This document shows positions 1-48,649 of a DNA stretch of 48,649 bases, one piece after another (the first letter of the stretch is position 1; each line of letters starts with the position of its first letter). The notes beneath the pieces were generated by a model. That model was given only the letters and a program-made list of their open reading frames with translations. It was not told where the DNA came from and made no database searches. The stretch is from Hydrurus foetidus. Lineage: Eukaryota. A program made the translations under genes and the position numbers. Location: the NCBI GenBank assembly GCA_900617105.1, contig UYFQ01000184.1:1-48649 (forward strand). The letters are read 5' to 3'.

Positions 1-3000
1 TTCATCAATGCAGAAAGAAACGGACCGAACGCATCCGTTTTGTCATCATCAATCTCATCTCCATTGAGATTGATTCCGCACGGCAACACGCTCGCGGCGT
101 TAAGTGTTACTGTGTTCACTCTCGTCCCGGTCTCAGAAGGGGGGCGGTTAAGACCACTGCCCGTCCATAGCGCAGATGGACCCCACTCTTCTCCCACTGT
201 TGGAATACGGTGGGTGCTCGAGTGACCTTCGTCTCCATTGTCAGCAGTGTCGGTAATTAGGCGACACTGTGTACAAGGACTACGCGATCCGACAGCGTCA
301 CTATGATGACAACAGACGTCGGTATGTGGATCTGTACCGATGTCGGACTCTGCCCTTAAGGGAAGTAGACCGATGTCATCTGGGCTGGGTGACGTTTCGA
401 TTAACGTAGGGTCAAAGCCCATACGTTTCGGCGTCAGCACAAACAAGTTGTGTTGATTCAGGGACTTGCGTCCGATGATCAGATCCAATTGTGCAAAAGG
501 ATTAACACTAAAAGTGATATAGATAGTGTGCTTAATATTACTATCATCGAGAAAAGTAAGGCCTAAATCGACTAAGGTATTACACCTATAACAAGTGCCA
601 TCAAGACCGCTACAAACGTTAAGTGCGGTTGAAGACACATAACAATGAGCAAGTGCATCAAGTGAGACAAGCAGTGATTTGGAAACAAAATCGCCGGCCA
701 TGCTACCCGTGTCTAGGAGCGCGTGCGCTGTAAGACTAAGTCCCGTGGACTGGGGTGCTGACGCGGCTGTGGTGGGGGCGTGTCCCTGCAAGGTTCTTCG
801 TTCATCCTTGAACACCAATAATGAAAGAAGTTCATTAGGATTTGTTGAGTGTACCGCTGCTACAAGTGAGTCAGACGGTAACGTACCTATGAGCGGTATT
901 TCCGACATGTCGGTCTGGTTATGGCATGCCGCCAGCACCTCCGAGATTAGAGGCAGGGAGGTATGGAGTGGCTGTAACACGTGAAGACATGTGGGAAGAA
1001 CATTGTTAGTGTTATCCGATATAGTATTGGAGGGGTTGAGACCTCCAATGTATCAGTTATGAGTATATCAGAGTTGAGTATACATAAAGGTGGTGGTGTA
1101 TCGGTAGGGTTACATGTGCTAGCAGCATGTATCGCCACTACCAATGACTCCACCACCGTGACATGAGGTAACGTACCATCATATGCGGCTGCGGGCGGTA
1201 GACCACTGTGGGTTGCGTTGATGGAGGTGTTGTTGGCCAACGTGGTGTTTTGTCCACCAGAACCGTATCGCGGTTTGTTGGTGGGACTCGATTATGAATG
1301 ACCACCCACCACCCTGAGGTTTTATTCAGTACCTCATCAGTGAAATTTGTTTCACGACGGGGTATGTGGATTTTGAAGCGGCCCAGACCAGGGATGCGAT
1401 CATTGATAGGGTAGGTCGCATGACCGTATTGTGCCCACGTGCGACCCATGTTGGAGTGGTCCCACGGAACATTGTGGTTGGTGTTTGAATCCACCATCCA
1501 CATGTGTGGGCAGTTTTTCAGCAGATGGTCCATGTGTCCACACGAGTTACACTGTCGGAGTGGTGTTGTTGGCAGTGCCAGCGGTGGTAAAGCTGGGAGT
1601 GCCGCACCAACCAACAGGGTTTTGGGGTTCGTCGTGAGAGACAACCCGTATGGATTTTGGGTAGCGGGGTGACAATAAATGTCGTTGGGGTCCCCAAAAG
1701 CCGCTACGTGTAGCTGAAGTTGGCGTACCGCATTGACTTGGGAGAAGAAGCGACGCATCGCGAATTCCCAATCGTCCACGTCATGCGGGTTGACGCGTTT
1801 ATGCTCTTTGTATTTGGCGGTGATGGCACCGTTAAGAGGCATCTTTTTCTCGAAGATGAGAGTGAGTGCAGCATGGTCGGAGGTGCTGAGTGGGCCATGT
1901 ACTTGTACATGGTTCTCCACCACCTCACGAAACTGAGTCATGCAGCGCATCTCAATCTCCCTTTTTTGTAACAAAAGGCGAGATGGACTTCCGAGAAATG
2001 CTCAGCTAGTGACTGCCCTAGCTGTGTGTCCGCGCGAAAGTAGCGCAGGACTAATTGCGCTACTTGAGGGACAGTCAGTGTTTGGAGCCACACTTTACGT
2101 GTCTCTTCCGCATATGGATAATCTTGATCCGTATGGATCTGATCATCGATACACCTGACTGCTTTAGTCGAGATGACTTGACCAACATCATAGTTGTTGG
2201 TCCACCTCTGGGAGTGTTCGAAAACTCCCGTGCGGCCTCTTGTCCAATAATGCCTGACGCATTTACGTTGAGAACGTAAAGTACCGTTTGCAAGGCAATA
2301 GCGGAGATGGGTCGGGAACCATCGTCCACAGCACGGCCACCCACTACAAGCGCTGTAGGTGCCGCATTGGGTGTGGCAAACTGTACCGCGGGTACGTTGA
2401 TCGGTGACGTACGATCGTGTATGTACCGTGGTATCGGTGGTCGTACCGGGTGCGCTGCATTGGGGTCGGGACCGCCCCCTGCAGCTCGGAATGCTGCTGT
2501 TTGCTGCTCGTAATCGATTATGCGAGCTGTTGCAGGCAGTATCACGATGTCTGGAGGATCCAAGGGGAGTGGGTTAGGAACCCGAATTTCCCGTGGGATC
2601 TCCTGGATGACTCGTTGGGGTTGTGGGTTGTAATCCGTGTCACCGGTGAACGTACGTACGTATGTAGGCCGTTCCGGTGACCCTGGTGGGAAGCTTGTCG
2701 CTTGCGTGATGTGGGACCCTCTTGTGGAGGTGACGCGCGTTTGCGAGGAACGTCCGCTGTGCGGGTTATTGTCTCCACATTTTCGGGGATGCGCGTATCG
2801 CGACTCTCGAGTAGTCGAGAATTGTCGGTAACGCGTACGGTTGCCCGTGGAGTCGCACGTTCGTCCTCGTACTGGTTGTCGTTGTACTGACGACCGTCAT
2901 TACGGTTGCCCCGGTTGGAGGTATCCTGTTGGCGACGATTGTCTCCTTGAGGATAATCCCTTGGGGACTGTCATCGTAACCCTGTGGGGTTCTCGACGAC

Positions 3001-4159
3001 TTCTCCTATTGGGGTTGTTGTCTCCCTGACGGAAACTGTCGTTGTTGTCGTCGCGAAATTTATCGAAACCGCGAGTGTTAGTCGAATAATTTCCCCTGTT
3101 TGGGTTGTCATTACGACGAGAATCCTCGTAATTACGATTATCCCTTTGGGGGTTATCGTTGTGACGTTGGAAGGTGTCTCTGCGATTATCCCTGTTAGGG
3201 TTGTCGTCTTGTTGACGATAGTCGTTATCGCGACGCCCGTCATTCTGACGTGGGTTGTCGTCGTTGCGACGATTGTCGCTGTTGCGTCGATCGTCGTATT
3301 GACGTCTGTTGTCGTCGTTGAATGGGTGTCGTAGCCGCGACGACCATCGTTGTCGTAGTCGTGACTGTCGTCATTCTGACGGTAATCGTCGTTATAACGA
3401 CGATTATCGTTCTGACGTTGATTGTTGTCAGTGCGTCATCTATCGCGACGAGTGTTGTTACGGTGCTCCGTACCGTATGAAGGGCCCGTATTACGGTTGT
3501 CCCTGGGAGGGTTGGAGTCATCGTAAGTACGACGATTGTCGTTGTGACCTTGACGATTGTCATTTAGAACGCTGATAATCGTTGTTGTTTCGATTATCGT
3601 CATTGTATGGACGTTGGTTACAATCGTTGTTGCGTTGACGGTTATCGTAACGATTATCGTCACGACCGTCTTCGCTACCACTCTGTTGGTTGGGAGTGGG
3701 CGGGTAGTCGCCTGCATCATCCCCTTCCAAAGGGTATTCTCGACGAGCTATATTGTCATAACTGTCGAGGCCCTTACGCTGTAAGAATCGTTGGGGGGTG
3801 AATCTATACGGTGGCGAGGGTTCTCGTCGCCGTCGTCATCATCCCGTTCAGTGTCGCTGTTATGGCGTGCTGTTGACGGTTGGAGTTGGCGTCTGACGAA
3901 CGCAACGTGACATTGTCATGTTGTCGCGTTTGCGAACGTCGTCGTCGTGACGATTAGGCGGCGCCTGATTGGAACTGTTGGTAGGTCCCAGTATTGTTAC
4001 TGGGAATACCGGTCGATCAGTTCCATCAGACGCAGCTAATGCTGTCGGCGTTGTTGTTGTCGACTGGATTGTCGCAACTGTCGTCGCTGCCGGTACTGTC
4101 GGAGTAATTGCTTCAGCGAGCGACGGCGAGATCTCCGAGGAGTCGTCGGATAACGGCAT
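1..4159 (-). pseudogene. Frameshifted gag-pol of Gypsy A copy 1
   Basis: Starts MPLSDDSSEISPSLAE like ORF 12629. Broken into fragments (3860..4159, 2542..2778, 2075..2563, 1138..1974, 947..1240) collinear with copy 2. Confidence 0.9.
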
Positions 4160-4707: not shown

Positions 4708-4719
4708 AGTAGATCTACT
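4708..4719 (-). promoter_or_regulatory. Palindrome AGTAGATCTACT at the PBS position of Gypsy A copy 1
   Basis: GTAGATCTAC (4709-4718) abuts the LTR end. Identical in copy 2. Function inferred. Confidence 0.7.
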
Positions 4720-4928
4720 GTGACCTTGGAAGGCAAAGCGAAGGGAGGTCTAAAGGCTAAAAGAAGCTTGTTAGTTAGGGATGCAACAGAAGGTACGCTA
4801 GTAACTTCTGCAAAGCAGCACAAACTAGCTAGTGACTGATAGTCGTGGCTGTGAACACGAAGGTACTAAGGTGGAAACAGCATCTAACCTAATCGCTGAA
4901 TGAGGTAGCAGACCCTGAGGGAGTCACA
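4719..4928 (-). repeat. 5' LTR of Gypsy A copy 1 (210 bp, TGTGAC...GTCACA)
   Basis: Reverse complement of the LTR at 12061-12272 with a few differences. Confidence 0.95.
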
Positions 4929-4972
4929 GACCCACGAACTAAGCTCAAATCGGAATCAGAGTTTATTAGTTT

Positions 4973-5932
4973 TTGGAAAAGTGCAAGGAGCGCTCTCAAT
5001 TCATTTCTGACCCGACACTCAATACCACCACATCCAACTCACATACAAACGGGGACTATCACTCATCGGCCACAATTTGTTTATACCCCCTCTCTTCCGC
5101 TTCGTTCATAGGTAGCGATGGGGTCATATCACTGCAGAGTAAAAAAGACCTGTCGACGTTCATAGCGACGTCTGTGCTACCTAGAACGAATCGTACGTAC
5201 GAAAGTCATTGGAACGCGTGGAAGCAGTTCTTAAAGAGCGAGTTGAATCAGGACGATCCTTTCCTCAGAGCACTGACCGAGGATGAGAAGGCATCTCTCG
5301 TTAGTATCATGATGCTCAGGAAGCACCAGGCCGGGCATAGAGGAAGAGCAGCTGCGTCGTTCACAGCGGGCATTAGAATGAGGTTCGCTCAAGAAACCCT
5401 CCCTACTGGGTTCCTGGACTCTGCAGTCGTTGCGACAGCTAGGACCTCGTGTTTGATGAAACCGGAGGAGTTGAGAGCAAAACGCAACAGTGCCCCATCG
5501 TGCACAGTCAAGCTCCCGATATGCGAGAGTGTGCTCGTTGAGATGAGGCAGCAGCTATGGGTTGGACGGACATGGGGTTACGCAGACCTCGCCTTGAGGA
5601 TGACACATCTAGGATGCATGTACGGTTTCGAGTTGTCAGCTCGTGTGGGGGCTTTCATGTATGGAGAAAACGGAGGGACTGACCACTGTATAAGAACAGA
5701 TGACCTGTCCTTCGCAGTTGAGACCCCACCCGAGTCAAGAAGTGTTGTGGGGAGCGAGTTAGCGGATCTTCCGCAAGTAAGGGCGGGTGAAGGGTACAGT
5801 CAGATTGTGCAGTGCCGTGTCCTAGGAGCCAGCACCAAAGGCAAGGTGACAGTCAAGGCGAAGCTTATTGGGCGCAGGTCACCCAAGGAGAGTGAGTTCA
5901 TAGATGATCTGATCGACTTCATCATCCACTAG
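4973..5932 (+). pseudogene. C-terminally truncated tyrosine recombinase, DIRS/Ngaro retrotransposon type
   Basis: TNRTYESHWNAWKQFL (SAM-like N-terminal domain), KLPI, GCMYGFELSARVG (catalytic Arg box), DHCIRTDDL. Stops before the HxxR and Tyr boxes. Confidence 0.75.
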
Positions 5933-6543
5933 ACAAATATCAAGGTAGGATTGGTTGGCTGCGGGGTGAGAAAAAACAGGCGCTAAACTTAGTGCAAATG
6001 CGGATACTTTTATGGGAGTGAGACTCTTTGCACTGAGCGAGTAAGCGGGTGCCAAAAACGATTCAGCACTTCTCTCTCGTTTGGCACCAGACATAATTCT
6101 GTGGTTGCGGCACTTGGGGGGACTCTCAACTGCCAGTGACTTGCGGGGTTAATTTGGCCCCCCATACTATTTCCCCCCCCTTCGACTAATCCCCCTGGGG
6201 TACTACCCAGGCTTGGCTCCGGTCAGCGGTCCTCGCTCCTGCCGCTCCAGAGAACCTATCCTACCGTAAAGGTATCCTCCAATTCTCTTCTACTCTCGAA
6301 ATCCCGTCCCTCTGGGGAAATCGATTCAATCTGTATTTCCTCCCTCCACACATCCCTGTGCTTCACTTCGTGTATAGTGGGAGGAAGATCGACAAAGGTA
6401 AATGGTAATATTATCTCACATGTGGTGCGCTGAAGCGCCAGTGGTTATTCGACTCTCCCGCCCCGCTCTTTTCATCTCTTGATTTGAGTTAGGGGTTATC
6501 GGGGGATCGTGGGTCCCTATTCCCTTCACCCATTTCTTACCAA

Positions 6544-6808
6544 TGTGGTCGTTGGTGACCTGAAGGCGAAGGACGAGGACGATGGACGAGGACGGAGGGC
6601 GAAAAACGAAGATGGAGGAGGTGGAAGAGTATTCTTATAGTTTACAGCAAGAAACAAGCAGCAGTATCTACAGTGATGTGTACTCGCGTGGAAACGAAAA
6701 GAAAAGAAAACTGTACCGGACTTTGGGTCCGTTCTAGAATCTACAGTACAGGTATAGTATACAGTCACAGTGTATCCGTACATGCAGTACAGATGCAGTG
6801 AGGCTACA
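6544..6808 (-). repeat. 3' LTR of Gypsy B
   Basis: Direct repeat of 11437-11701, TG...CA termini, purine tract GAAAAGGGAAGAAGGGGTAG immediately upstream on the minus strand. Confidence 0.95.
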
Positions 6809-7030
6809 CTACCCCTTCTTCCCTTTTCTTTTCCAATGAACTCTACTAATATTTGTATGAGAGTGGGAAAGAAAGACGAAACAAAACACATTTTGAAAAA
6901 AAAAATGAGAAACTTCGAAAACGATGATGTCAGACTCTTACTGACTAAATTCCTCCAAAAAAGAATATAAAAAAAAAGGAGGTAAATTCTTCATGAATAA
7001 CGTTTCGAGTGAAGAAATCAACGGTGTTGT

Positions 7031-10000
7031 TTATTGATTAATTTGGTTTTGATGAAGTAAATCTGTACGAAGAAGTTCTTTGGCCGAAGCTTTGAGAAGA
7101 CTATCTTGTATTTTTAACAGATTGCTCATACGTGTTGACAAAGGTTTGTCATTAATAACAAGTCTCTCAGATGGAGGAAGAAATATTCCTCTGTCTAATT
7201 TGAGTATATTGCCGAAAAGCAATTGAGATGCAGAGATTTTTAAACGATCACTGTGATTAGAATTTAAAATAACTTCGGAAATGAAGTGTGGCCCATTATC
7301 AGAACGGAGTTGGAGAGGTGCGCCGAAACGACCGAAATGTTGCAAAAGGCATTGAGCAGTCGAAAGTGCCGAAGCATCTTTAGTATGAAACAGCTCAACC
7401 CACCTTGTGAACGTATCGATAATTACGAGTACGTACCCCCGTCTGGAAACGGTCCTACGAAGTCTATGTTAAGGCACTCCATAGGTGTGTAAGTAGAAGT
7501 CGAAAAGCCGTGAGCATGAATTGGGATCTTTAACATGCTCATCTTTTGACAACACGAACAGTGATCTATGAACCACCTGACATGCTGTCGTTGAAACTGC
7601 CACACCTTGTTGTTGTCTTTGAGACGCTTTAAAGTGCGCTCAAGACCAAAGTGACCAACTTGTGAATTGTGTACATTACTTATAGTATTGTATTGTTCAC
7701 GAGTCAGTTTGAATTTTTCAATAATATTGGCAGACATGATTGTCTCAAGTGAATATTCTTGAGGATGGTCAATCATGTTGTTACGACAGAGTCGAGACAT
7801 CGAATCGGCTATGTCATTGTTAACACCAGAAATGAATTCAATTTTAAATGAGAATTCTGATAAAGCCATAAGCCAACGAACAATCATTGGATTTGAATGA
7901 TTTTTAATGTATAACAAGTTACGATGATCGGTGCGTAAAGTAAACATCCGATCACGTAATAGCGATTTTAAATACGTGCACGCAAAGAAAATAGCATATG
8001 CTTCTTTCTGTATAACTGCCCACCTAAGTTGAGCTTTGTTAAGCGATTTACTAACAAATGCTACGGGCGTCTCTTTTCCGTCAACTAACTGAAAAAGATA
8101 AGCACCTACACCGTAATCCGATGCATCAGTGTGCAAGTAAATCGGATCGGTGTCACTTAAAAAGTGCATTGTCGTGCATTTTGCAGTCTCAGATTTAATT
8201 AACTCAAATGCTGAGTCAGCTTCTGGTGTCCAAACTATTTTTTTAGATTTATTATAATCAACAAGCAACTGGTGTAATGGATATAGTACACTTGAAGCAT
8301 TTTTGATAAAATCGCGAAAATAGTTTACCAAACCTAAAAAGCTTTTAAGTTGTTTAGATATATCTGGTTTTGGAAAATCTAAAACTTGCTGTATTTTTTC
8401 TTGTGACATTTTTAGTCCATTCGACGTAACATTCAGCAGAAAGGACTTTGCCAACATAATCAATTTCGGAATAGCCAAGATAACATTTATTTGGTTTAAG
8501 AAATATTTTATGTTGTCGAAAGCGTTGAAAGACAAGACGGAGTCTAAAAACTAATTCGTCAGTGTCTTTGCCGAAAACATTGCAATCATCAATGTACATT
8601 TCGCATATAGTGTAAATCAATCCAGCTAATACAACAGTTGCCATGGTCTGTTGAAAATAAGAAGGAGCTCGTTTAGGCCCGAAGGGCAGACGAGTGAATT
8701 GATACACGCCACAGAAAAGTATGAATGCCGTGTATGCGCGTGCTGCAAGTGTAAGCGGTGCTTGATGATATCCTTGAGTGAGATCAAGTGTAGCGAATAC
8801 TTTAGCTTTATGAGCACCAATTCGATGTAACATTTCATTTATGTTAGGAATGGGCCATGATGCATCTTCGGTACAATCATTAAGATTTCGATAATCTATA
8901 CACATGCGTTTGGTTCCGTCAGATTTTGGAACCATAAGCACTTGGCTGTAATAAGCCGCATTTGATTTCTCGATAATCCCTTGCTCTTCAAGTTTCGCGA
9001 GTTGACGTATAATGTCAGCTTGATTTGCAGTGGATTGAGGTCGAGGAGGTGTTCTATTACGGGAGACTTTCCATTTTACGTCATCCACGTTAAGTTCAAA
9101 CGGTGGGATATCAGCAGGGCTAGCCGGAAGCTCACTGCTAAATATATCCCTAAATTCGTTACATAGTAAACGGAGTTTATTTTTCTGATCTTCATCACCT
9201 GCTATGTGTATTAGCGAGAGTGAATCTGTATCAAGAAATTCATTAATCCATGGTGAAAAGGAGTCATTTAATGAATCATCAATTTCATCTTCATCAGGCG
9301 GCACAACTCCAAATAGTTGTTCCGACTCTTGAATTAACGAAGCTAGTATGACATGTGTTTGGGTGACTGCCGGATCTTTCATTTGGGTTAATGAAAGATC
9401 TTTTGGGGTTCCTTTAGAGGTTTGCAAAGTCTCTTCAGGCTGACAGCCACATGTCATGACCACATCTTCAGAAGTCGAGACTCCCTTTATTGGGGTTGGT
9501 CGCGATGAAGTGCTGGATTTTATTTGATCTGGGAAAATCGAGAATAGATCTAAATCTCGTATAATTTTTCTTCCCACTATCAGATCAATTTGTGTTTGTT
9601 CTAAAACATAAGCCGTGATTTGGAAAGAAGAATAATTATTTAAATCAGGGCAAAAATAAGAAAGGTTTAAGTCGATGGTTTCAGAAATTTCATAGCAATG
9701 ATTATCTAAACCACTACAAACTTTACACGCTTTCTTAGATGATTTAGAAACATGTTGTGTTAAGTTAAGATTATTTATAACACGCCTAGCTATGAAATTG
9801 CTGGCGATCGATCCCGTATCCAATAGAGTGAAGACTCTATTTTTCTCTTCCAGCGAAGTTTGCTGAGAAATATGAGAAATAAAGAAAGGGATAGGATGTT
9901 TATCCGATGAAACGGAAGGGTTGTCAATTGACGACATATTAAGGTTGTAAACGTAGTCACCTTTTTGTTTCTTCGCGACACGAGTAGTGTCTGCTGACGA

Positions 10001-10063
10001 AGCAGCGGTCTTAGAAGACGTAGAAGAAGAGGAGGAAGCGGAAAACCGCTTCCTCCTCTTCTT
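7031..10063 (-). pseudogene. pol of Gypsy B (protease, RT, RNase H, internally deleted integrase)
   Basis: LLDTGS, RMCIDYRNLN, EMYIDD, LHTDASDYG, HHCC (VHNSQVGH...CSCCQ), NIDFVGP, RSDNG. Frameshifts near 8430 and 7430, deletion near 7265, no GPF motif or chromodomain left. Confidence 0.93.
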
Positions 10064-11360
10064 AGGCGTTTGTTCCGTAGGCGTTTGGGATGAACGCCGC
10101 TTTGGGATCGATCTTGAAAAGATCTTTGCCTCCTTCCGACTGAAGGAAAGGTTTCTCGGTACTGTTAAAGTACGGAGAAGAGCCGAACCGACAAGTGGCT
10201 ACTAAGTGGCCAAGTCTCCCACAGCCAGTACAGTGGGGTTTGTCAGATTGCTCAGGCTTCTCGTCCTCTCGTAGCCGTTTTTTAATTCGTGACTCTTGAG
10301 GAGGACGGTTAGAGTTTTTGATCTGGCGAGAATGATCGCCATAAGTCGGGTGAATGTCTACAAACCGTAAAGCATCAATTGCTTCTCGTAGCTTTCTTGG
10401 TTGCGCACGCCACACGAATCGAAAATCATCGACCGTGATAAGACGTGGCATTCTATCGAGAGTGCGGTACAAAACTGACCTCCAATTAATGGGTTCAGCT
10501 GGCAACTTATCAATAAGAATTTTAGTTGCTGTTAACTGCATGGCAGCTGACACCTCAGGGAATGCATCGACAATATCAGCTAAAAGCTGGTCTGTCTTTT
10601 CTTCCACTGATGGGTTCTTCAGGTCAAATTGAATTTGAACCTGAGTAATGGATTCAATGAATCCTAGTTTATCCGTTCTGGACGTAGCAGTTGCAGGAAT
10701 TGCCAAATTCAATTCTCTACAAAAATTCTGATTAGTCCAGTTTCTCCAGTTGTTACAACTGTCTCGACGATCAGGGTCGGTTGCAAATCGAAGTTGCAAA
10801 AGGGTTCTAAAAGATTGGAAGTTGCTGTGATGAACGACATCAACTGGCCGAAACGGCGTTCCATTCGAGAGGAGAACCTCTGAAACTCTTTGAACTTCTT
10901 GCCAAGACGGCTTGGCGCTCAACTTAGGAGCTTTCTCACCAACTTGCACGTACTGAGTTGGTGGTGCCAAAGCACGTTGATCAGCAGATCTATCGACCGA
11001 AGTCAACGTGATCTCAGCCGAAGCTGGTGTCGCAGCCGAAGCTGGTATCGCAGCCGAAGCTGGTGAAATTGTTAATGCAGACAACGCAGAAATTACAGGA
11101 GCATCAACGACAGACACGACCGCAGGCCCCGACGTCAGCTGAGACGCCGGCGCAGACAGGTCTCCGGCGGGGTCCTGAATCGCAGGTGATCCAGGAGACT
11201 CTATGTCTTGGACGTTGCGCTGCGTATGCTTAAGATACGCCTTCCGTGCTGCGACGGCGACAGCGCGCGGCTGAGCTCGTCTTAAGATGGCGCCGGTGTT
11301 GTCGGTGGTGTTGGTGATGGCTTTAGCCGAGGCATTGGCACGGATACGGCGAATAGCCAT
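10062..11360 (-). CDS. gag of Gypsy B
   Basis: 432-aa ORF just inside the 5' LTR with CCHC knuckle CTGCGRLGHLVATC. Confidence 0.85.
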   Translation of the reverse strand: MAIRRIRANASAKAITNTTDNTGAILRRAQPRAVAVAARKAYLKHTQRNVQDIESPGSPAIQDPAGDLSAPASQLTSGPAVVSVVDAPVISALSALTISPASAAIPASAATPASAEITLTSVDRSADQRALAPPTQYVQVGEKAPKLSAKPSWQEVQRVSEVLLSNGTPFRPVDVVHHSNFQSFRTLLQLRFATDPDRRDSCNNWRNWTNQNFCRELNLAIPATATSRTDKLGFIESITQVQIQFDLKNPSVEEKTDQLLADIVDAFPEVSAAMQLTATKILIDKLPAEPINWRSVLYRTLDRMPRLITVDDFRFVWRAQPRKLREAIDALRFVDIHPTYGDHSRQIKNSNRPPQESRIKKRLREDEKPEQSDKPHCTGCGRLGHLVATCRFGSSPYFNSTEKPFLQSEGGKDLFKIDPKAAFIPNAYGTNA

Positions 11361-11425
11361 GCTCCGAGAAATTTCCCGAGAAAAGATGAATGAGTAGAAG
11401 GAAATAATTTTGGTCGTAGGAACTA

Positions 11426-11437
11426 AATATCGATATT
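11426..11437 (-). promoter_or_regulatory. Palindrome AATATCGATATT at the PBS position of Gypsy B
   Basis: ATATCGATAT (11427-11436) abuts the LTR end. No TGG tRNA-type PBS. Function inferred. Confidence 0.7.
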
Positions 11438-11701
11438 GTAATCGTTGGTGACCTGAAGGCGAAGGACGAGGACGATGGACGAGGACGGAGGGCGAAAAAC
11501 GAAGATGGAGGAGGTGGAAGAGTATTCTTATAGTTTACAGCAAGAAACAAGCAGTAGTATCTACAGTGATGTGTACTCGCGTGGAAACGAAAAGAAAAGA
11601 AAACTGTACCGGACTTTGGGTCCGTTCTAGAATCTACAGTACAGGTATAGTATACAGTCACAGTGTATCCGTACATGCAGTGCAGATGCAGTGAGGCTAC
11701 A
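11437..11701 (-). repeat. 5' LTR of Gypsy B
   Basis: Direct repeat of 6544-6808. Confidence 0.95.
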
Positions 11702-12060
11702 CCAAGGCAATTCACCCAGTCATGTGGTGACTGCGATTATTAGATAGTTAGTCTGACTGCTGGGATAAGGCGCATAGGTCGAGATGGGAAGAAAACCAAA
11801 ACCTCCGATTTCAAAAACCTCTCAAAAACCTCTTTTGAAAAATTTACCGGTTTTCGATTTCGGTTTTGGGGTAGGTTTTGACGTCGACAATTTTCGTACC
11901 GTCGAGTGCTCTTTGTTTGCGCTCAAACGTGGTATTAGGATTTATCGGAAATACACTTAAAATCACGGAAAACTTTCTCCCCGTTTTCATGTGGGAAATT
12001 TTGACCTCTGTCAAAATCACTGTTTTCGCTCCAAAATGGACGATTTTGAACTCGAATAGC

Positions 12061-12272
12061 TGTGACTCCCTCAGGGTCTGCTACCTCATTCAGCCGATTA
12101 GGTTAGATGCTGTTTCCACCTTAGTACCTTCGTGTTCACAGCCACGACTATCAGTCACTAGCTAGTTTGTGCTGCTTTGCAGAAGTTACTAGCGTACCTT
12201 CTGTTGCATCCCTAACTAACAAGCTTCTTTTAGCCTTTAGACTTCCCTTCTCTCTAGCCCTCCAAGGTCACA
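12061..12272 (+). repeat. 5' LTR of Gypsy A copy 2
   Basis: TGTGAC...GTCACA, repeated at 20583-20789. Confidence 0.96.
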
Positions 12273-12283
12273 GTAGATCTACT
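12272..12283 (+). promoter_or_regulatory. Palindrome AGTAGATCTACT at the PBS position of Gypsy A copy 2
   Basis: GTAGATCTAC at 12273-12282 directly after the LTR CA. Absent after the 3' LTR. Function inferred. Confidence 0.7.
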
Positions 12284-12628
12284 TCCTTTAGTTTCTCTTC
12301 TTTAGACCCTATTCTCCTTCTTCTACGCTACCCTGCTGTCCTAACTCTCCCGACTACCCTGCGTGGAGAATCTCGAATTTTATTCGAAATTCTCGTTTAC
12401 GGGCAATTCTTACTGTCGCGAGCAAGTCTCCGAAGTCTGGTCGCCGTAAATTTAGTCACTCGGATTGAGATTTATCTCCCGATACTTGACTATCTTGTGG
12501 TTGCTTGACGATTGTACTTCGCCTAATCGACTGTTTGATTTTCATCCAAACGGCACGAGGCGAAGCCCTTGCAAATTTTTTTGGCGACTCTCGCTACTTA
12601 AAATTGTCAAGCAATAAGTCATTTAGCG

Positions 12629-15600
12629 ATGCCGTTATCCGATGACTCTTCGGAGATATCGCCGTCGCTCGCCGAATTCACTACTCAATTAGTTCCGGCA
12701 GCGACGACAGTTTCAAAAACTCAGTCGACACCAACAGCGCCGACAGCAGTAGCTGCGTCTGATGGAACTGATCGACCGGTATTCCCAGTAACAATACTGG
12801 GACCTACCAACAGTTCCAATCAGGCGCCGCCTAATCGTCATAACGACGACGATGACGACGTTCACACAACGCGACAACAAGACAATGTCACATTGCGTTC
12901 GTCAGACGCAAACCGTCAACAGACACGCCACAACAGCGACCCTGACCGGGATGATGACGACGGCGATACAAACCCTCGCTGCCGTATAGATTTACCCCCG
13001 CAACGATATCTCCGTCGTCAGGGCCTCGACAGTTACGACAATTCAACTCGTCGAAATAATCCCTTCGACGGAGATGCAACGGGCGACTATCCGCCTACTC
13101 CGAATCAACAGAGTGGTAGCGAAGACGGTGGTGACGTTAATCGTTACGATAACCGTCAACGCAACGATTCTAACCAGCGTCAACACAATGACGATAATCG
13201 AAACAACAACGATTATCGGCGTTTTAATGATGACAATCAAAGTCACAACGATAATCGTCGTAACTACGATGACACCAACCCTCCTAGGGACAACTGTAAT
13301 ACGGGCCCTTCATACCTTCATACGGTACAGAGCACCGTAACGACAACCGTCACGATAACGATGAACGTCAATATAACGATGATCGCCGCAACGACAATCA
13401 ACGTCAGAGCGATAATCGTCGTTATAACGACAATTACCGTCAGAATGACGACAGTCATGAGTACGACAACGAGGGACGTCGCGGGTACAACACCCAATTC
13501 AATGACGATAACAGACGTCAATATGACGATCGACGCAACAGCGACAATCGTCGCAACGACGACAACCCACGTCATAATGACGGGCGTCGCGATAACGATA
13601 ATCGTCAACAAGACGACAACCCTAATAGGGATAATCGTAGAGACACCTTCCAACGTCCCAACGATAACCCCCAAAGGGATAATCGTAATTACGAGGATTC
13701 TCGTCGTAATGACAACCCCAACAGGGGGAATTATTCTACGAACACTCGCAATTTCGATAATTTTCGCGACGACAACAACGACAACTTCCGTCAGGGAGAT
13801 AACAACCCCAATAGGAGCAGTCGTCGAGAACCCCCACAGGGTTACGACGACAGTCCCCCCAGGGACAATCACCAAGGGGACAATCGTCGCCAACATGATA
13901 CATCGAACAGGGGCAATCGTAATACTGACAGGCGTCAGTACAACGAAAATCAATATGAGGACGAACGTGCGACTGAGAGTCGTACGACTCCACGTGCGTC
14001 GATACGCGTGACCGACAACTTTAGATTGCTCGAGAGCCGCGCTATGCGCATCCCCGAAGATGTGGGGACAATAACCCGCACAGCGGATGCTCCTCGCAAA
14101 CGCGCATTACCCCCGCAAGAGGGTCCAACGTCACGCAAGCGACAAGCCTCTCCACCAGGGTCACCGGAACGTCCTACGTACGTACGTACGTTTACTGGTG
14201 ACACTGATTATAACCCCCAACCCCAACGAGTCACCCAGGAAATTCTACGGGAAATTCGGGTTCCTACCCCACTCCCCCTGGATCCTCCAGACATCGTGGT
14301 GCTACCCGCAACCGATCGCATCATCGATTACGAGCTGCAAAGAGCAGCGTTCCGAGCTGCAGGGGGCGGTCTCGACCCCAATGCAGCGCAACCGGTACGA
14401 CCGCCGATACCACGGTATATACATGATTGTACGTCACCGATCAACGTACCCGCGGTACAGGTTGCCACACCCAGTGCGACCCCTACAGCGCTTGTTGTGG
14501 GTGGACGTGCTGTGGATGATGGCTGCAAACGGTACTTTACGTTCTCAACGTGAATGCATCCGGCATTATTGGATAGGATGCAGCGCGGGAGATTTATGAG
14601 CACTCCCAGCGCTGGACCAACAACTATGATGTTGGTCAAGTCATCTCGACTAAAGCAGTCAGATGCATTGATGATCAGATCCATACGGATCAAGATTATC
14701 CATACTCCGAGGAGACATGTAAAGCGTGGCTCCAAACCTTGACGGTCCCTCAAGTTGCGCACTTAGTCCTGCGATACTTTCGCGCGGAAACGCAACTCGG
14801 GCAGTCACTGGCGGAGCATTTCTCAGAAGTACATCTCGCCTTCTGTTACAACAAAAGGGAGATTGAGATGCGCTGCATGACGCAGTTTCGTGAGGTGGTT
14901 GAGAATCATGTACAAGTACATGGCACACTCAGCACCTCCGACCATGCCGCACTCACTCTTATTTTAGAGAAAAAGATACCTCTTAACGGTGCCATCACCG
15001 CCAAATACAAAGAGCATAAACGCGTCAACCCGCATGACGTGGACGATTGGTGTGAGTTGCCACGGGTTGGCACGAAGTCGGGAGGACATATCGTGGATGG
15101 CCAAATTAAGATGGAAAGGTTTGGTTAGTAAATTTGATTTAAGAATTAGAAACTGGCACGGAGGCCACAAAGCATAAAGTCATGTTGCACATCATTCCTA
15201 CCTGCCGTACAATGATAAGATCTCAATCGTCATGCGCATGCAATTTGACTGGCTCTCGTAGATTTGCATCTACGTTGTTGTATAGGCGAGATAGTAGCTA
15301 CTCAACTGTAAATATGACGTTTGTACTAAAAGCTAGACTTTTGGTACGAAGTACCGGATAAATACTATACAGCTGTGGTTATTATGGTGTAACAATGGCA
15401 ATATACGTGATACGAATTGGCATTGAGGAAGCGACTTGGTGCACATTGCACACCAATAACAATCTACAAAATGTGTATACTTATGATATCCTATCATGCT
15501 AATTGTTGCTTATACAAATGGTAATATACAGCTATAACTAGCACTTATCGCTGTTATATACCGACAATTGGGAATTCGCGATGCGTCGCTTTTTCTCCCA

Positions 15601-18600
15601 AGTCAATGCGGTACGACAACTCCAGCTACACGTAGCGGCTTTCAGGGACCCCAACGACATTTACTGTTACCCCGCGAGACGAAACCCGTATGGGTTATCT
15701 CTCACGACTAACCCCAAAACACTGTTGGTTGGTGCGGCACTCCCAGCATTACCACCGCTGGCACTGCCAACAACACCATTCCCGCAGCGTAACTCGTGTG
15801 GGCACATGGACCATCTGCTTAAGAGTTGCCCACACATGTGGATGGTGGACTCGAACACCAACCACAATGTCCCGTGGGACCACTCCAACATGGGTCGCAC
15901 GTGGGCACAGTACGGTCATGCGACCTATCCTCTCCACGACCGCATCCCTGGTCTGGGCCGCTTCAAAATTCAGATACCCCGTCGTGAAACAAACTTCACT
16001 GACGAGGTACTGAATAAAGCCCATCCCCCAGGAGGTGGTCATAAGAAAAAATACCAAGGGAACCCCAATCATGGGGGGAACTTTAACCGGAGCGCCACCA
16101 ACAAACCGCGATACGGTTCGGGTGGACAAAACACCACGTTGGCCAACAACACCTCCATCAACGCAGCCAACAGTGGCCTACCACTCCCAGCCCCATACGA
16201 TGGTACGTTAACTCATACCACGGTGGTGGATGCATTGGTAGTGGCGATACATGCGGCTAACACATGTAGCCCTACCGATACACCACCATCGTTATGTATA
16301 CTCGACTCTGATGTACTCATAACTGATGCATTGGAGGTCTCTACCCCTTCCAATACAGTATCGGATAACACTAACAATGTTCTCCCCACATGTCTTCACG
16401 TGTTACAGCCACCCCATACACCCCTACCGCTAATCTCGGAGGTGCTGGCGGCGTGCCATAATCAGACCGACATGTCGGAAATACTGCTCATAGGTACGTT
16501 ACCGTCTGACTCGATTGTAGCAGCGGTACACTCAACAGTTCCTAATGAACTTCTTTCATTATTGATGTTCAAGGATGAACGAAGAACCTTGCAGGGACAC
16601 GCCCCCACCACAGTCGCGTCAGCACCCCAGTCCACGGGACTTAGTCTTACAGCGCACGCGCTCTTAGACACGGGTAGCATGGCCGGCGATTTTGTTTCCA
16701 AATCACTGCTTGTCTCACTCGATGCACTTGCTCATTGTTATGTGTCTTCAACCGCACTTAACGTTTGTAGCGGTCTCGATGGCACTTGCTATAGGTGTAA
16801 TACCCTAGTCGATTTAGGCCTTACTTTTCTCGATGATAGTAATATCAAGCACACTATCTATATCACTTTTAGTGCAAATCCTTTTGCACAATTGGATCTG
16901 ATCATCGGACGCAAGTCCCTGAATCAACACAATTTGTTTTTACTGACACCGACTAACGTATGGGCTTTGACCCTACGTTAGTCGAAACGTCACATAGCCC
17001 GGATGACATCGGTCTACTTCCCTTAAGGGCAGAGTCCGACATCGGTACAGATCCACATACCGACGTCTGTTGTCATCATAGTGACGCTGTCGGATCGCGT
17101 AGTCCTTGTACACAGTGTCGCCTGATTACCGACACTGCTGACAATGGAGACGAAGGTCACTCGAGCACCCACCGTATTCCAACAGTGGGAGAAGAGTGGG
17201 GTCCATCTGCGCTATGGACGGGCAGTGGTCTTAACCGCCCCCCTTCTGAGACCGGGACGAGAGTGAACACAGTAACACTTAACGCCGCGAGCGTTTTGCC
17301 GTGCGGAATCAATCTCAATGGAGATGAGATTGATGATGACAAAACGGATGCGTTCGGTCCGTTTCTTTCTGCATTGATGAAAGACCCTACCCCAACAGGT
17401 AGGGCGAACGATGTCATCTCGACAATCACCTTTGGTGGGTCGGACGCTCTGCAAACAGCATGCAGAGCATTATGTACCGAATTTATTGACATCTTTCAAG
17501 ATGAGGTGGCCCGTGAACCGGCCCGTATACCTCCTTTTGACATTGATCATAAGGCGGCACAATGGGAAGTACCTGGTAACAGGACCCCGCTCCGCCCCCA
17601 ATCCTCACAGAAGGAGGAGGCGATTCACAATAACCTTCAGGATCTGATACGGATCGGGGTGGTTGAGAAGTCTAATGCGGTATACTACAGTCACCCTGTA
17701 GTAGTACAGAAGTCACCCGGACAATACCGTGTATGTATTGACTTCCGGCCACTTAATAACTGTACGGAGTCGGCCAGTTGGCCACTCCCCAACATTCCAG
17801 CAATGTTTGAACGCATTGGCGCTCGTCAACCTGACATCTTTGGAGTTATGGACTTAACGTCCGGCTACCATCAAGCACCCCTTACGGCATCAGCCAAAAT
17901 CCTGACTGCATTCATATGCTTCTCTGGAATTTATCAATTCACTCGATTGCCTTTCGGCCTCAAACGTGCCCCATCATACTTCCAGGAGATGATGGCCACG
18001 GTTGTCCTTGCGGGCCTTTTATATGTAACATGTGAGATGTATCTCGATGATTGCATTGTATTTGGTAATGGACCTGACGAGTTTCTGCAGAGACTTCGTG
18101 ATGTCTTCATCCGTTTTCGAGAAAAGAATTTATTCTTGAAAGCTAAGAAATGTAAGTTCGGAGTTACACGCCTCGAATACGTCGGACGTGTGATCTCCAA
18201 AGAGGGGTTATCTATGTCGGCTGAGAAAATAAAATCTGTTTTAGATTTTCCTCGCCCTAAAACCGTCACTGCCCTTAGGGGATTTCTCGGTTTGGCGAAC
18301 TATTTTAGAGGTTTCGTACCAAACCACTCCAACATAGTGGCACCGTTACATAAAATGACGGTGTCTACAACTCATAAACATTCCAGAGTAACCTGGAATG
18401 CTGAAACCATTAAAGCGTTTCAAGACATTAGGCAGGCAATCTCTCAATGCCCCCTGATGCACTTCATTGATAATGTATCACCAATACATTTATACACCGA
18501 CGCATCTGATTATGGTGTAGGCGGTGTATTGTTCCAAAAGGTTGGAGATGAGATGAAACCCATTTCATTTGTGAGTAAGTCACTCACCTTCTCACAGTTG

Positions 18601-20217
18601 AACTGGTCAACAATCCAGAAAGAAGCTTATGCTATCTACTTGTGTTGTACAAAACTTGATCCACTATTACGTGATCGCAAATTTACGATTCATACAGATC
18701 ATAAAAATCTGACGTACATGAAATCCTCCCCTAACTCGATGGTAGGGAGATGGTCCATGGCTCTACAAGAGCTGGATTACACTATCGCATACGTGCGAGG
18801 GTCTGAGAACACGGTCGCGGACGCTATGTCCCGCCTCTGTCCTAATCTCTCCGACCTTGTCATCAAGGTCCACCCAGCCACCACTGACACAGAACCAGAT
18901 AACTTGCCGGGCCCGTTTTGCGGCGCCCTCAAGATCATATCGCAACGCGACGCACTCAACATGTGCCACAACAAGTTTGTCGGACACGGGGGTATTAAAC
19001 GCACCGTAGAAAAGCTTATAGGCTTACCCATTCAGTGGGAACACATGGTCCAGCACACCCACTTGTTTATACAACAATGCGCGTGCTGCCAGAAGATGAA
19101 CGCTACACGCGTACCGATACGTGTACACAAGTACGTTACTTCTGCGTAGAAACCTTTCCATGTATTGAACATCGATTTCATCGGACCCTTCCCCGATGCC
19201 TCACACGTTCTTGTCATCATCTGTGCTTTCACACGATGGACAGAACTATTTTGGTGTGCTGATAATACGGCCAAATCGGCTACCGACTGCCTTCATCAAC
19301 ACTTTGGAAGATACGGTGCACCCCAAATGATCAGATCTGATCGGGGTTCACATTTTGCTAATGAACTGATCAAACAATTCCTAGTGTCAACGGGTACACC
19401 CCACAACCTGACACTAGCATACCCTAAACAAGAGAATGCAATAGTTGAACGAGTTAATAAAGAAATTAACTGGTACTTACGGTCGTTCCTGTATGATACA
19501 AACGACGTGTACCAGTATAAAAACTGTTTACCGTTTATACAGCGCATTTTGAATTCCTCAATTCACAGCAGTACAAATGCTTCCCCAGCAAGTTTATTGT
19601 TTGGTAACGAAATCAATCTTGATTCTGGAATACTTTCACCATTTCCACAATTACCGGAAGTTGAAACTCCCGCATCCAAAGTGATCTGTGAGATGTATAA
19701 CATCCAAGACACCCTGATTGCCCAAGCACAAACTGCTTTGCGCACAATGGACGCGGCGCACATTGCCACAAGTCCACAAGATATAACAGTTTTTCCTGTA
19801 GGTTCATATGTGTTGGTTAGATACACCACACAACCGCCCACACGCTTACACACGTTGTGGCGGGGACCGTTTCAAGTGGTATCGATCCACAACTCTGATT
19901 ATACGTTGTTAGATATAACTACGAAGAAACATAAACATCTTCATATTAGTAATCTTAAACAATTTGTTTTCAATCCGAAACATACGGATCCTGCTGATGT
20001 AGCACGCCGCGATTATATGGAATTCTTTATTGATTCCATTCTTCAGCACCAAGGCAATTCCAGACGAAAAACCCAAATGCGGTTTTTAGTCAAATGGACT
20101 GACTTTGACGACTCACACAACACGTGGGAGTTGTGGAAGAATCTTCGTCTTACAGACGCTCTTCACACATATTTACGCCTTCACGGCATGTCGAAAATAA
20201 CTCCGACAGAAAAGTAA
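12629..20217 (+). pseudogene. gag-pol of Gypsy A copy 2 with C-terminal chromodomain
   Basis: ALLDTGS, YRVCIDFRPLN, EMYLDD, YTDASDYG, CHNKFVGH...CACCQ, NIDFIGP/RSDRGSHF/VERVN, WRGPF, chromodomain FIDSILQH...FLVKWTDFDDSHNTWE. Disrupted by frameshifts, a solo LTR and a stop at 19147-19149. Confidence 0.95.
15051..15566. mobile_element. Solo LTR (516 bp) of another family inserted in Gypsy A gag, 5-bp TSD ATTGG
   Basis: TG...CA ends. ATTGG at 15046-15050 and 15567-15571. Absent from copy 1, which reads DVDDWEFAMRR uninterrupted. Confidence 0.9.
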
Positions 20218-20524
20218 GTTCCCCAGGAACGACCTACACATTATCTTTTGAAGATTCCTCCTCATTTTTACAGCGTTACGTTGCTTTTCAGGAGGTTTAG
20301 TCAGTAAAAATCTGACATAAATGTGTAGGGGAACACTTAGTTCAAACACATCTAGGCACTCTCGTTTCCCACTTTCCCCATCTCTCAACATGTACAAATA
20401 TCTGTATTTATCGTACGTATTTATTTCTGTATTTTTTTATTTTTTTTATTGTCTTTTTCTGAATTTTTCTTTCTCACGCTTGAGTCGTATTTGTTTTGTT
20501 ACACATTGTAGCTAGAGACTCGCC

Positions 20525-20582
20525 AAGAGAGAGAGAGGGTGAGGGAGAGAGAAATGAGAAAACGAGAGATAAGTAGGGGCAG
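20525..20582 (+). promoter_or_regulatory. Polypurine tract of Gypsy A copy 2
   Basis: Purine run ending GAGATAAGTAGGGGCAG immediately before the 3' LTR. Confidence 0.85.
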
Positions 20583-20789
20583 TGTGGCTCCCTCAGGGTC
20601 TGCTACCTCATTCAGCCGATTAGATGCTGTTTCCACCTTAGTACCTTCGTGTTCACAGCCACGACTATCAGTCACTAGCTAGTTTGTGCTGCTTTGCAGA
20701 AGTTACTAGCGTACCTTCTGTTGCATCCCTACCTAACAAGCTTCTTTTAGCCTTTAGACTTCCCTTCTCTCTAGCCCTCCAAGGTCACA
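20583..20789 (+). repeat. 3' LTR of Gypsy A copy 2
   Basis: Direct repeat of 12061-12272. Confidence 0.96.
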
Positions 20790-21012
20790 TAGCTGCTGAG
20801 CCAAAGATCAGTTACAAGATTTGTTAAGATCTTAATGTCTCACGTATCCCAAAGTTGACGATTCTCGAAGAAAGTTGAGTTGCGCTTCACTGCTACTCTT
20901 GAAACGTGCAAAAATGATCATATTTTGGCTGATATCGGAGAAAATAAAAAAACGTAATATCACAATTGGGCGCAAACAAAGGGCACTCGACGGTATATGG
21001 GCGACGGTAGAC

Positions 21013-21720: not shown

Positions 21721-21894
21721 CGTTTCTTACGCACCGAAAACTAAAACCAAAAACCCACGAGCTTTCATTTTCGGGGAGTTTCGGAATGAGAAAACTGTGA
21801 AAACAGGCCTGTTTTCACAGTTTTCTCATTCCGAAACTCCCCGAAAATGAAAGCTCGTGGGTTTTTGGTTTTAGTTTTCGGTGCGTAAGAAACG
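21721..21894. repeat. Perfect spacerless 174-bp palindrome
   Basis: Two 87-bp arms centred on AGG|CCT at 21807/21808. Confidence 0.95.
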
Positions 21895-21897
21895 TCA

Positions 21898-23210
21898 GGC
21901 CGTTACTTATAGCATCCACAATCTTGCATCCAAAATCGGCAATTTTGGGTTGAAATTTGTTCATTTTTTTGGATTCTTAATTCTGAATGGTGTCTCTTAT
22001 AGCATCCAGAATCAATCTCCCAAAATCGGTCATTATGGATGTTGTGCCTTACAGTATGAGCCAGAATCTTATCTAAAAACTTAGAATCGATTCAACTGAT
22101 TTCAAATTTCAAATATTTTATGGTTGTCAATAGTAACATGGTTGTCCTATTCTGGTCTTTCAACACAATTTGAACCACATATCATCATCATGGAGCTCCA
22201 ATGTCCTATTTCCCAGTGGATAGGGCCTTGAAATGGCTCTTGGAGGAGGTCATTTGCTCTCGGGGTGTCATGACACTGTTTGATGACTGAGATTCAGAAA
22301 TGACTGTAATTTGTGCCTCAGAAACCTCGTCTAGTGCTTGAACTAATATATTTAGAGAAGGTTATACTTAGGTTGACTCAGATTCGAAGGAATCAAGTGC
22401 TAAAAATGACTCACCAAAATTCTCAAATTCGTCACTGTCGTGATGGTTAGCATTTCGATTACTATCAGTAGGTTTGACACTAAGGGTAGTTGCAGCCACT
22501 ATCGGAGTTGAGATATTATTAGCTTGAGATGGTTTAGAAGCATTGGATGATTGTTCGCGCTGTGCTTTGTTGGCGGCTAGTCTCTTTCTCAGTAGATCCC
22601 CCTCATGTAGTAAGAACTCTTTGTAGTAATCGTCCACTAAGCTTTTTTCCTCCTCAGATGTAGCGTTGGATTGAAGGAGCTGAATGATTCTCAAATTGTG
22701 GGAGCTGCTTGCGATTTGTAGCTCTTGATCTACTTGGAGAAGTCGGTGGGACATCATGGTATTACTGTCGGCGGAAATTTTGGTAACTGCCGTAGCTACT
22801 GATTCGACGTCTCGTTGATGAGATCTACCCGCTGGTTTCTTGGACACCCGCTTCCCTTTTTCGTCGGTAAAAAAATGCTCCGAATCAGTAGGACCTTCGC
22901 TAGTAGGCAGGTAAAGTTCCTTCACTGATGTAGCTGTGTTCGTCGGCATCTTCCTCGTCCTCATTTTCCGTAGCTCGATGTAGACGTAGCTCGACTCTTA
23001 CGGGCGTTGAATGCATGACTATAAATTCTGGCATGACGTCTACCATGCCGGAATATTGGTCCAATTTGTGGATGATTTTTCGCATCCATTTCTTCAAATT
23101 CAAAAAAAATTGTGGATGCAAAATTTAGGGTCAGTAAGGAATGCATTCCCGTAAAACCCGCCCAAAATTACCGATTTTAGACGGGATTATGGATGCTGTA
23201 AGTAACGGCC
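21898..23210 (-). mobile_element. Non-autonomous PIF/Harbinger-like element
   Basis: Imperfect TIRs of about 50 bp starting GGCCGTTACTTA(T/C)AGCATCCA. Flanks TCA and TTA (imperfect TSD). No transposase. Confidence 0.75.
22368..22964 (-). pseudogene. Probable remnant of the Harbinger accessory (DNA-binding) ORF
   Basis: 198-aa ORF inside the TIRs with a basic KRVSKKPAGR patch followed by a helical region. Upstream part frameshifted. Assignment is by context. Confidence 0.45.
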
Positions 23211-23226
23211 TTACGTACGGTCACAC

Positions 23227-23647
23227 TGTTCCGAAAACGGTGAAAACACTTTCGTTTCTCGCTGGTGACTGATGCAGTCAACCTCAGTAGCGAGAGATTG
23301 TGTTTGATTTGATCCTTGTCTTTGTAATATTTAACTTGAGCCTCCTTTAATACCAGCCTCTGACAGTATAGGCGCGCTTTCCTATACTCTCTGGAGACTG
23401 TGCAAAAGGAGTGGTCGGCAACGATGTCTAATTACGTGACAAAGAAATATAACAGTTGCAGTGAAAAGCACTAACTATTTCTTCGGACGAAACCGCGTAT
23501 TCGCTATGTCAATACTGAATCGTGAAGATACACTCAAGTTGTAGTTTCGTACGCTAAAACTATAGATCGTTGAGCTCATCACTTCAACCGGTATCACTAT
23601 AGTGTTATACGGTATTTGCATACATGTGAATCTGTCATTCCCAAACA
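23227..23647 (-). repeat. 3' LTR of Copia
   Basis: TG...CA. Short PPT AGGGGTA precedes it on the minus strand. Confidence 0.97.
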
Positions 23648-23859
23648 TACCCCTTGATGAGGTCATACAGTTCTCATAGTGACGTTTCAGAATTGAAGAA
23701 CGTTCTTCCGTTAATTCAAAACTGAAAACTCTGCCGTTTCAGAATTTCATGGCATGAAAAATGAAAAGTGTTGACGCAGAATGTCGAAGTCGAATCGCGA
23801 ACATCTCTCGAACTCTGCAGAACATTTCTCGAACATCATCTATCTCTCCTGTGATTAGA

Positions 23860-28518: not shown

Positions 28519-28606
28519 CGGTTCTCCGGATCAGATGCTCTCTGAGTCCGTCCAGATACTCTCTGGATTAGCTAGCTTAAGTAGCCTTTTGCTTCTGCTA
28601 GCAATG

Positions 28607-28617
28607 TATTTCTTTGT
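28607..28617 (-). promoter_or_regulatory. Non-tRNA PBS complementary to the element's own LTR (28829-28839)
   Basis: + strand TATTTCTTTGT (28607-28617) is the exact reverse complement of ACAAAGAAATA (28829-28839). Confidence 0.7.
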
Positions 28618-39513: not shown

Positions 39514-39632
39514 AAACATAATCACAGTATTGCTTGCTAATAATATTGTTAACTCATACCATGCTGTAGGATATCATTAACTTTCAATTAATAATATAAT
39601 TTCAATTTTGCGAAAACTAAAAGTTTTTTTTC

Positions 39633-40448: not shown

Positions 40449-40518
40449 TGCTGAGGAGTGCAGCTAGCAGTGCAGTGGAGTGTCTTGTGCTGAGGAGGAT
40501 GGCGCAGCCTGCAGGCTC

Positions 40519-48646: not shown

Positions 48647-48649
48647 GAA

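Follow-up and report, generated by a model that had tools for sequence, protein, structure and literature searches.

A palindrome at the primer-binding position of a Gypsy retrotransposon clade: a likely substitute for a tRNA site and a candidate for priming between two genomic RNAs

Two Gypsy retrotransposon families in a 48,649-nt stretch of DNA from Hydrurus foetidus (contig UYFQ01000184.1; hereafter, the window) carry a perfect palindrome directly after the 5' long terminal repeat (LTR), at the position of a tRNA primer-binding site (PBS), and what then starts their reverse transcription is the question. A sequence-only reading of the window had proposed that two RNAs pair at the palindrome and that a cut 3' of it supplies the primer. 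We find that the palindrome is real and clade-wide; it is likely a covarying substitute for the tRNA PBS, and likely both primer site and primer.

The Gypsy elements of the window and their palindromes

The window is a cluster of transposons amid intron-poor eukaryotic genes, one of which, a host SNARE gene, has its best named relative in Mallomonas (56% identity). Family A is present twice. The whole copy, A1, lies on the plus strand at 12061–20789, with LTRs of 212 and 207 bp and the target-site duplication (TSD) TAGC on both sides (12057–12060 and 20790–20793); its 5' LTR (12061–12272; 212 bp) reads TGTG...CACA, and a polypurine tract (PPT) and the 3' LTR (20583–20789) together occupy 20566–20789. 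Between them are a gag and protease region split over several frames (12602–16981), which includes a long Asn/Asp/Arg-rich repeat stretch, and a pol region (16957–20217) in which Pfam domains and the YLDD and TDAS motifs mark RT, RNase H, integrase, and a chromodomain, with one stop at 19147–19149. The family A repeat stretch (13300–14553 and 2900–3435) precedes the gag core; no aligned relative was seen to have one so long. The second copy, A2, is inverted and truncated by the window start; its part at 4708–4928 (minus strand) comprises the 5' LTR (4719–4928) and the palindrome (4708–4719).

The family B element (6544–11701, minus strand) has LTRs of 265 bp and the TSD TTGG on both sides, the 5' LTR lying at 11437–11701 (TSD at 11702–11705) and the 3' LTR at 6544–6808 (TSD at 6540–6543). 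Its gag-pol (6809–11360) is frameshifted, with the gag ATG at 11360 and a polypurine tract immediately before the 3' LTR; in this copy, the integrase is degraded and the chromodomain is missing through damage. A third Gypsy family is represented by its 3' part only (46325–48649, minus strand; RNase H, integrase, and chromodomain by Pfam, then PPT and 3' LTR). Its 3' LTR (46325–46537) ends in GGACTACA, the 5' end and primer site lie outside the window, and the LTR had no match in the five MAGs searched or among the collected loci. By Pfam domain order, A1 and the third family are Ty3/Gypsy elements with a chromodomain, and the TSDs are of 4 bp. The pol of A1 has RVT_1 and an integrase after RNase H and is thus not of Copia type, and the best solved relative is Ty3 RT (E 7e-69). 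Pol identity between families A and B is 50%, and the chromodomain (PF00385) is present in most relatives.

Both copies of family A read CA-GTAGATCTAC-T and family B reads CA-ATATCGATAT-T, each a perfect 12-bp palindrome if the last A of the 5' LTR is included. The A1 palindrome, A-GTAGATCTAC-T, runs from the A at 12272 to the T at 12283 on the plus strand (inner 10 bp at 12273–12282), that of A2 is identical to it, and the family B palindrome, A-ATATCGATAT-T, lies at 11426–11437 on the minus strand (inner 10 bp at 11427–11436). The LTR ends of A1 and B were set independently of the palindrome, from the second LTRs and the TSDs; for A1, the contigs of 4/4 public runs also depart from the reference behind 12272. 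The claim of the sequence-only reading that two families share a 10-bp palindrome (12 with the last A of the LTR) in the same register was therefore borne out, as was its second family A copy at 4709–4718, where we find the same motif. Its estimate of about 4^-5 for the chance of a palindrome at a fixed site agrees with our recomputed 1.0e-3 for 10 bp; for 12 bp, the figure is 2.6e-4. Position, not mere presence, is what counts because the window holds 83 perfect palindromes of at least 10 bp. In the contigs of four runs, family A has 14 variable places in 12180–12380, and no substitution at 1% or more is listed at 12257–12296.

Other features of the window were noted in passing. The 5' LTR of family B ends in GATTACA and its 3' LTR in GACCACA (11440–11441). 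Contigs of three runs carry B with the 3' LTR form (GACCACA) and another letter at 11424, a variant in which the U5-leader stem is cleaner and has a bulged C; the copy in the window is altered on both sides. A Copia element (RVT_2; 23227–29037, minus strand), with an unbroken 1556-aa frame, LTRs that are 99.8% identical, and the TSD GTGTG, has CAAAGAAATACATTG after its 5' LTR, which is neither TGG nor a palindrome. A perfect 174-bp palindrome at 21721–21894 stands beside an inverted repeat pair (21892–21949 and 23161–23216), possibly the termini of a DNA transposon that received the Copia insertion. The 320-aa frame at 4970–5932 (plus strand) had no Pfam match, and we take it to resemble the N-terminal portion of a DIRS/Crypton-type tyrosine recombinase. 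Transposase frames of PIF/Harbinger-like and DDE_1 types and tandem repeats of 17/22 and 39 bp are found at 38014–39513, 43073–44476, and 39609–40526.

Distribution and covariation of the palindrome

A Pol search gave 1029 proteins, and the scans for loci found 2 in viral contigs, 66 in metagenomes, and 80 in MAGs; in the viral collection, a single-protein query had no match, and the two loci were obtained with alignment queries. These two (L001 and L002) are circular assemblies of this retrotransposon clade. The 80 MAG loci (L069–L148) are eukaryotic Gypsy contigs in many bacterial and archaeal MAGs, likely through binning contamination.

The unbiased count was made over the 28 loci that cover the whole element circle, 26 of them in the clade and two outgroups (L119 and L129). 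Between the PPT and gag, a CA-anchored palindrome of at least 10 bp was present in 22/28, compared with 1.4 expected from shuffles, and one of at least 12 bp in 19/28, compared with 0.36; one of the 22 matches, that of outgroup L119, lies inside the LTR and is due to chance. The enrichment that the sequence-only reading proposed to test for in related families is present, and the symmetry is kept. Within the 26 in-clade loci there were 21 CA matches and one TA match, and L032 and L100 have the site even though the automated LTR/PPT caller failed there. The inner palindrome is perfect in 26/26, and it is perfect with the last A of the LTR (A0) included in 24/26; L019 and L036 have a perfect inner 10-mer and lack the A0 pair, which is broken in L007, L017, L019, and L036. 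LTR ends were fixed independently in L013, L043, and L062 and in the pairs L099/L105 and L034/L006; those of L017, L019, and L036 were placed by homology to L023 only. In these last three loci, another CA lies ~20 nt past the palindrome with an imperfect inverted repeat after it, an alternative LTR end, and the TT centre of this later repeat appears to covary between L019 and L036. The LTRs of L002, L023, and L084 apparently end in TA, not CA, with the palindrome still in register. In L068, ATTCGATAT follows the 3' LTR, one letter short of the palindrome of its family, and then unrelated DNA; it is possibly a primer-site remnant on an integrated cDNA end, or chance.

Two checks were blind to symmetry. 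A profile of positions -6 to +3 placed its top site on the perfect palindrome in 19/26 loci (16/23 without the training elements) and picked another site in the other 7/26. A pattern with four free centre letters had 46 matches in 10 MAGs: the centre was palindromic in 6/7 element-linked matches (two of the six being contigs already in the collection) and in 0/39 others (Fisher p = 7.5e-7), and the seventh element-linked match lies 52 nt inside an LTR.

On a FastTree phylogeny of 91 RT-RNase H-integrase sequences, from which L116 and A2 (too little Pol) and named reference elements were left out, all palindrome-bearing elements fell into one clade with support of 1.0; a comparison with the Atlas gave generic RT clusters only. 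L119, L126, and L129 lie outside it and carry TGG where the clade has its palindrome. The trait is thus clade-wide in one Gypsy clade.

Symmetry is conserved and sequence is not. Among 53 junction copies, retained after 7 duplicate rows were dropped, there are 23 different palindromes, and 12 of the 16 possible centres are used. Grouping at 80% Pol identity gave 37 clusters, with palindromes of 12 bp in 28, 10 bp in 6, and 16 bp in 3; position -1 is C in 34 clusters and T in 3. The outer letters are near-fixed (A0, then R-T-A) and A0:U11 is near-invariant, while the centre varies: the two central pairs change most often, and always together, and the four centre letters are self-complementary in all 28 twelve-mers. 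A 41-tip tree requires at least 16 paired changes at P5:P6 and at least 12 at P4:P7, counts biased by selection in that the rows were chosen as perfect palindromes. Even L014 and L015, which are 98.5% identical, differ by a compensated centre. One-step mirror copying was considered for the compensated pairs L014/L015, L054/L055, and L046/L049 and is not proved, a change of CG to TA being possible via a G:U intermediate; the leaders of L054 and L055 differ at 16/73 sites.

The pattern of change bears on whether one RNA or two are paired. If a single RNA, cut after the palindrome, folded back as a hairpin primer, conserved outer pairs would be expected, and these are indeed the most conserved; monomer folds also often have a 4-bp stem and a 4-nt loop at the site. 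The loop letters should then be free, yet they are the very ones that remain self-complementary and change in pairs. A fold-back primer is thus very unlikely because the central bases cannot pair within one strand and because 22/23 palindromes have no stable hairpin alone. Pairing at the palindrome is most likely between two molecules, as judged from the covariation of the central pairs, which a hairpin loop cannot explain. The clade-wide covariation, central pairs included, supports both the independence from tRNA and the two-molecule pairing put forward in the sequence-only reading.

Candidate primers and proposed priming between two RNAs

Known primer signatures were looked for around the palindrome. 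TGG was absent from positions +1 to +5 in 37/37 clusters, and neither the A nor the B motif begins with it, as the earlier reading had said. ARAGORN found no tRNA in the window and three in 1/30 loci, which is a MAG contig and not demonstrably from this host. A fragment cut in the anticodon loop of a tRNA is a further candidate, as in Ty5, copia, Bianca, and fungal Helenus/Copia. We take the GATCTAC of family A to resemble the complement of the anticodon arm of tRNA-Tyr. Fungal Copia and Helenus elements are described as using the anticodon loops of tRNA-Tyr, -Ile, -Asp, and -iMet as primers (PMC10886601). However, 23 symmetric variants of 10–16 bp, differing even between L014 and L015, cannot all match tRNAs, and half-tRNA priming was confined to Copia lineages in the plant survey as cited here (PMC6317226), so that we give a tRNA fragment very little credence. 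A fixed tRNA, or a DNA-binding protein, would be expected to fix the sequence and not symmetry alone.

Ordinary self-priming of the Tf1 type, from the 5' end of the transcript, would suit elements with a chromodomain, as in the Tf1/sushi group. A complement of at least 9 nt in the 5' LTR was present in 1/19 families (L023, 9 nt); the remaining 18/19 have no more than 7 Watson–Crick nt and none reaches 11 even with G:U, two of the 19 LTR starts being possibly miscalled. In A and B, the anchored complement in their own LTR is 4 nt each, and exact complements of the first 25 nt anywhere in that LTR reach at most 6 nt in A and 5 nt in B, in accord with the earlier finding of no complement there. 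The 5'-transcript complement, which the sequence-only reading had named as evidence against itself, was accordingly not found beyond L023, and Tf1-type priming supplies no reason for symmetry; we regard it as scarcely credible here.

Homodimers of the palindromes have a predicted mean of -11.2 kcal/mol (about -5 to -16), compared with -1.6 for mixed pairs and -1.4 for A with B. A U5-leader stem beside the palindrome is better than that of the median foreign leader in 28/37 clusters and in the top tenth in 8/37, which is only a tendency; it is absent in A1 (rank 0.72).

The reading that we favour, with a probability of roughly 55%, is that two packaged RNAs anneal at the palindrome and that one of them, cut 3' of the site, primes its partner. 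The two genomic RNAs would form an antiparallel duplex centred on the palindrome, with P1 of one opposite P10 of the other; Gag/NC would anneal an inner duplex of 8–14 bp, closed by A0:U11 and often by the U5-leader stem. This U5-leader pairing in the dimer may take the role of the flanking duplexes in Tf1, where the RNase H of RT cleaves an 11-nt RNA:RNA duplex that two more duplexes flank (PMC7175516; bioRxiv 2022.12.06.519325). Here, RNase H would cleave one of the RNAs immediately 3' of the palindrome, the junction of P10 and U11 being the most likely place; the resulting 3'-OH would face the first base that follows the LTR in the partner, and the first template base would be the last A of the LTR. 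Only one RNA could be cut because the template must keep its site, and the intact partner would be the template. Plus-strand strong-stop DNA would then copy the primer's palindrome and anneal to the minus strand's copy, which would need strict Watson–Crick symmetry because both DNA copies would have the same sequence; this last step is not guaranteed in a Gypsy element because the PBS of Ty3 is not inherited from the primer (PMC5371799). G:U pairs make up 0/127 inner pairs in 25 clusters (p = 0.0015 at an assumed 5% wobble rate, the pairs not being independent), an argument weakened because a symmetric dimer also pays each wobble twice. In favour of dimer priming, the palindrome keeps a constant register to the LTR end, which is required of a primer site but not of a dimerisation signal; against it, many of the duplexes are weak and the flanking stem is a tendency.

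The main rival makes the palindrome a signal for dimerisation or packaging, like the retroviral DIS or Ty1 PAL1/PAL2, or confines its action to strand transfer, the primer being something else. All of the covariation results fit it equally well, and homodimers so much more stable than mixed pairs are what a family-specific address would give; moreover, the palindromes of the Ty1 5' UTR are described as needed for dimerisation (PMC6844567). On the other hand, it leaves the elements with no primer site, TGG and an LTR complement both being absent, it does not account for the fixed register at the LTR end, where the outgroups bind tRNA, and most of the palindromes are AU-rich. For MMTV, dimerisation is reported not to need the palindromes that lie within the PBS (PMC8096270). 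Overall, we judge dimerisation alone to be possible and distinctly the less probable of the two.

Alternatively, the primer could be a sense-RNA piece of the element itself that stops at the palindrome and is produced by a host nuclease, a small-RNA pathway, or early termination, or be recycled plus strong-stop DNA, with no RNase H cut in a dimer. Such a piece would be complementary to the site of another copy and so predicts the symmetry, the covariation of the centre, and the register. However, at Rfam gathering thresholds the window and 14 loci had 0 matches and thus no known ribozyme, and the near-invariant A0:U11 with the outer R-T-A suggests a structure read at the duplex end; we consider a sense fragment unlikely. 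No fold-back or strand-switch joint at the palindrome centre is listed, a weak negative for dimer priming in that the public runs were available as contigs only and the four contigs of the RNA run lie off both palindromes.

Comparison with known systems

The primers recognised for LTR elements are of three types (PMC6317226): a whole tRNA, a half tRNA, or the 5' self-primer. If dimer priming is true, the partner genome would supply one more type of primer, dimerisation would be tied to initiation, and the element would probably escape both its dependence on host tRNA and silencing by tRNA fragments. Should the site serve dimerisation alone, a large clade is left without any known primer. Annotation tools that demand a tRNA PBS would miss such elements.

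The anatomy has one precedent in the open PMC and bioRxiv full texts, the fungal GalEa elements of Ty1/Copia. Their Conserved Hairpin Site is a 9-nt sequence after the 5' LTR that is palindromic with the last A of the LTR, and no model fitted it (Donnart et al. 2017, PMC5445492). As in the present clade, a tRNA PBS is absent and the palindrome, proposed there as a stand-in for the PBS, directly follows the 5' LTR and includes its last A. In contrast, GalEa is Copia and the present clade is Gypsy; the GalEa site is 10 nt and nearly fixed (CTGATCAGT or CTAATTAGT), compared with 23 palindromes here, and is followed by a second arm, CHSeq2 (PMC5445492), which was found in 0/37 of our clusters within 70 nt at no more than one mismatch. 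The main GalEa variant, CTAATTAGT, occurs mostly in low-GC families, which suggests an origin by RIP rather than by covariation; the present clade supplies real covariation, unlike GalEa variants that RIP possibly made. In the passages cited, the GalEa authors mention the DIS and propose no dimer priming (PMC5445492), and a paper on bivalve TRIMs cites the GalEa site without a mechanism (PMC6934838). The sequence-only reading knew of no description of the priming mode; the anatomy itself is already on record in GalEa. In open PMC and bioRxiv full texts, neither a Gypsy case nor a dimer-priming proposal was found; subscription journals and Repbase Reports could hold one.

To our knowledge, Candida Tca3/Tcd3 are also Gypsy elements with neither tRNA nor Tf1-type priming. 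Cryptococcus Tcn2-5 (via the review PMC7175516) and SM-Tcn1 (PMC2864245) are reported as Gypsy elements of the same kind, and no palindrome is mentioned in the relevant passages. Two other candidates were set aside as precedents: Troyka is unrelated, with CG...CG ends, a 3-bp TSD, and no primer-site palindrome in the passages cited (PMC12440569), and the description of Helenus, as cited, contains no palindrome (PMC10886601).

Retroviral DIS and Ty1 PAL1/PAL2 resemble the present site as self-complementary RNA that joins two genomes (PMC6844567, PMC8096270), but those signals are described as standing beside a tRNA PBS, whereas in this clade the palindrome itself lies where the PBS would be, and a separate primer site was not seen. 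The Tf1/sushi group (Tf1, Tj1, and Tosmo; in plants, Tcn1 and TAR) is likewise one of chromodomain Gypsy elements that use no tRNA and form an RNA:RNA duplex of ~11 bp at the PBS (PMC7175516, PMC4600332, PMC6317226, bioRxiv 2022.12.06.519325). There, the primer is the first 11 nt of the transcript, acting in cis at a PBS that is non-palindromic in the accounts cited; here, no such complement is present, and a second RNA would act as the partner. The clade would work like Tf1 self-priming moved in trans if the RNase H cut falls at the end of the duplex.

More broadly, we would give even odds to a fourth start mode for LTR reverse transcription, in which a dimer primes at a palindromic PBS and one genome is sacrificed as primer. 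The site would double as a family-specific pairing address, mirror copying would turn single mutations into new perfect palindromes, and the mode would have two separate origins, one in Gypsy (this clade) and one in Copia (fungal GalEa), explaining the GalEa site. That site and other elements described as having no PBS would become directly testable in a two-RNA complementation assay. By the features tested, the clade lies outside the Tf1-type, tRNA-primed, and GalEa groups.
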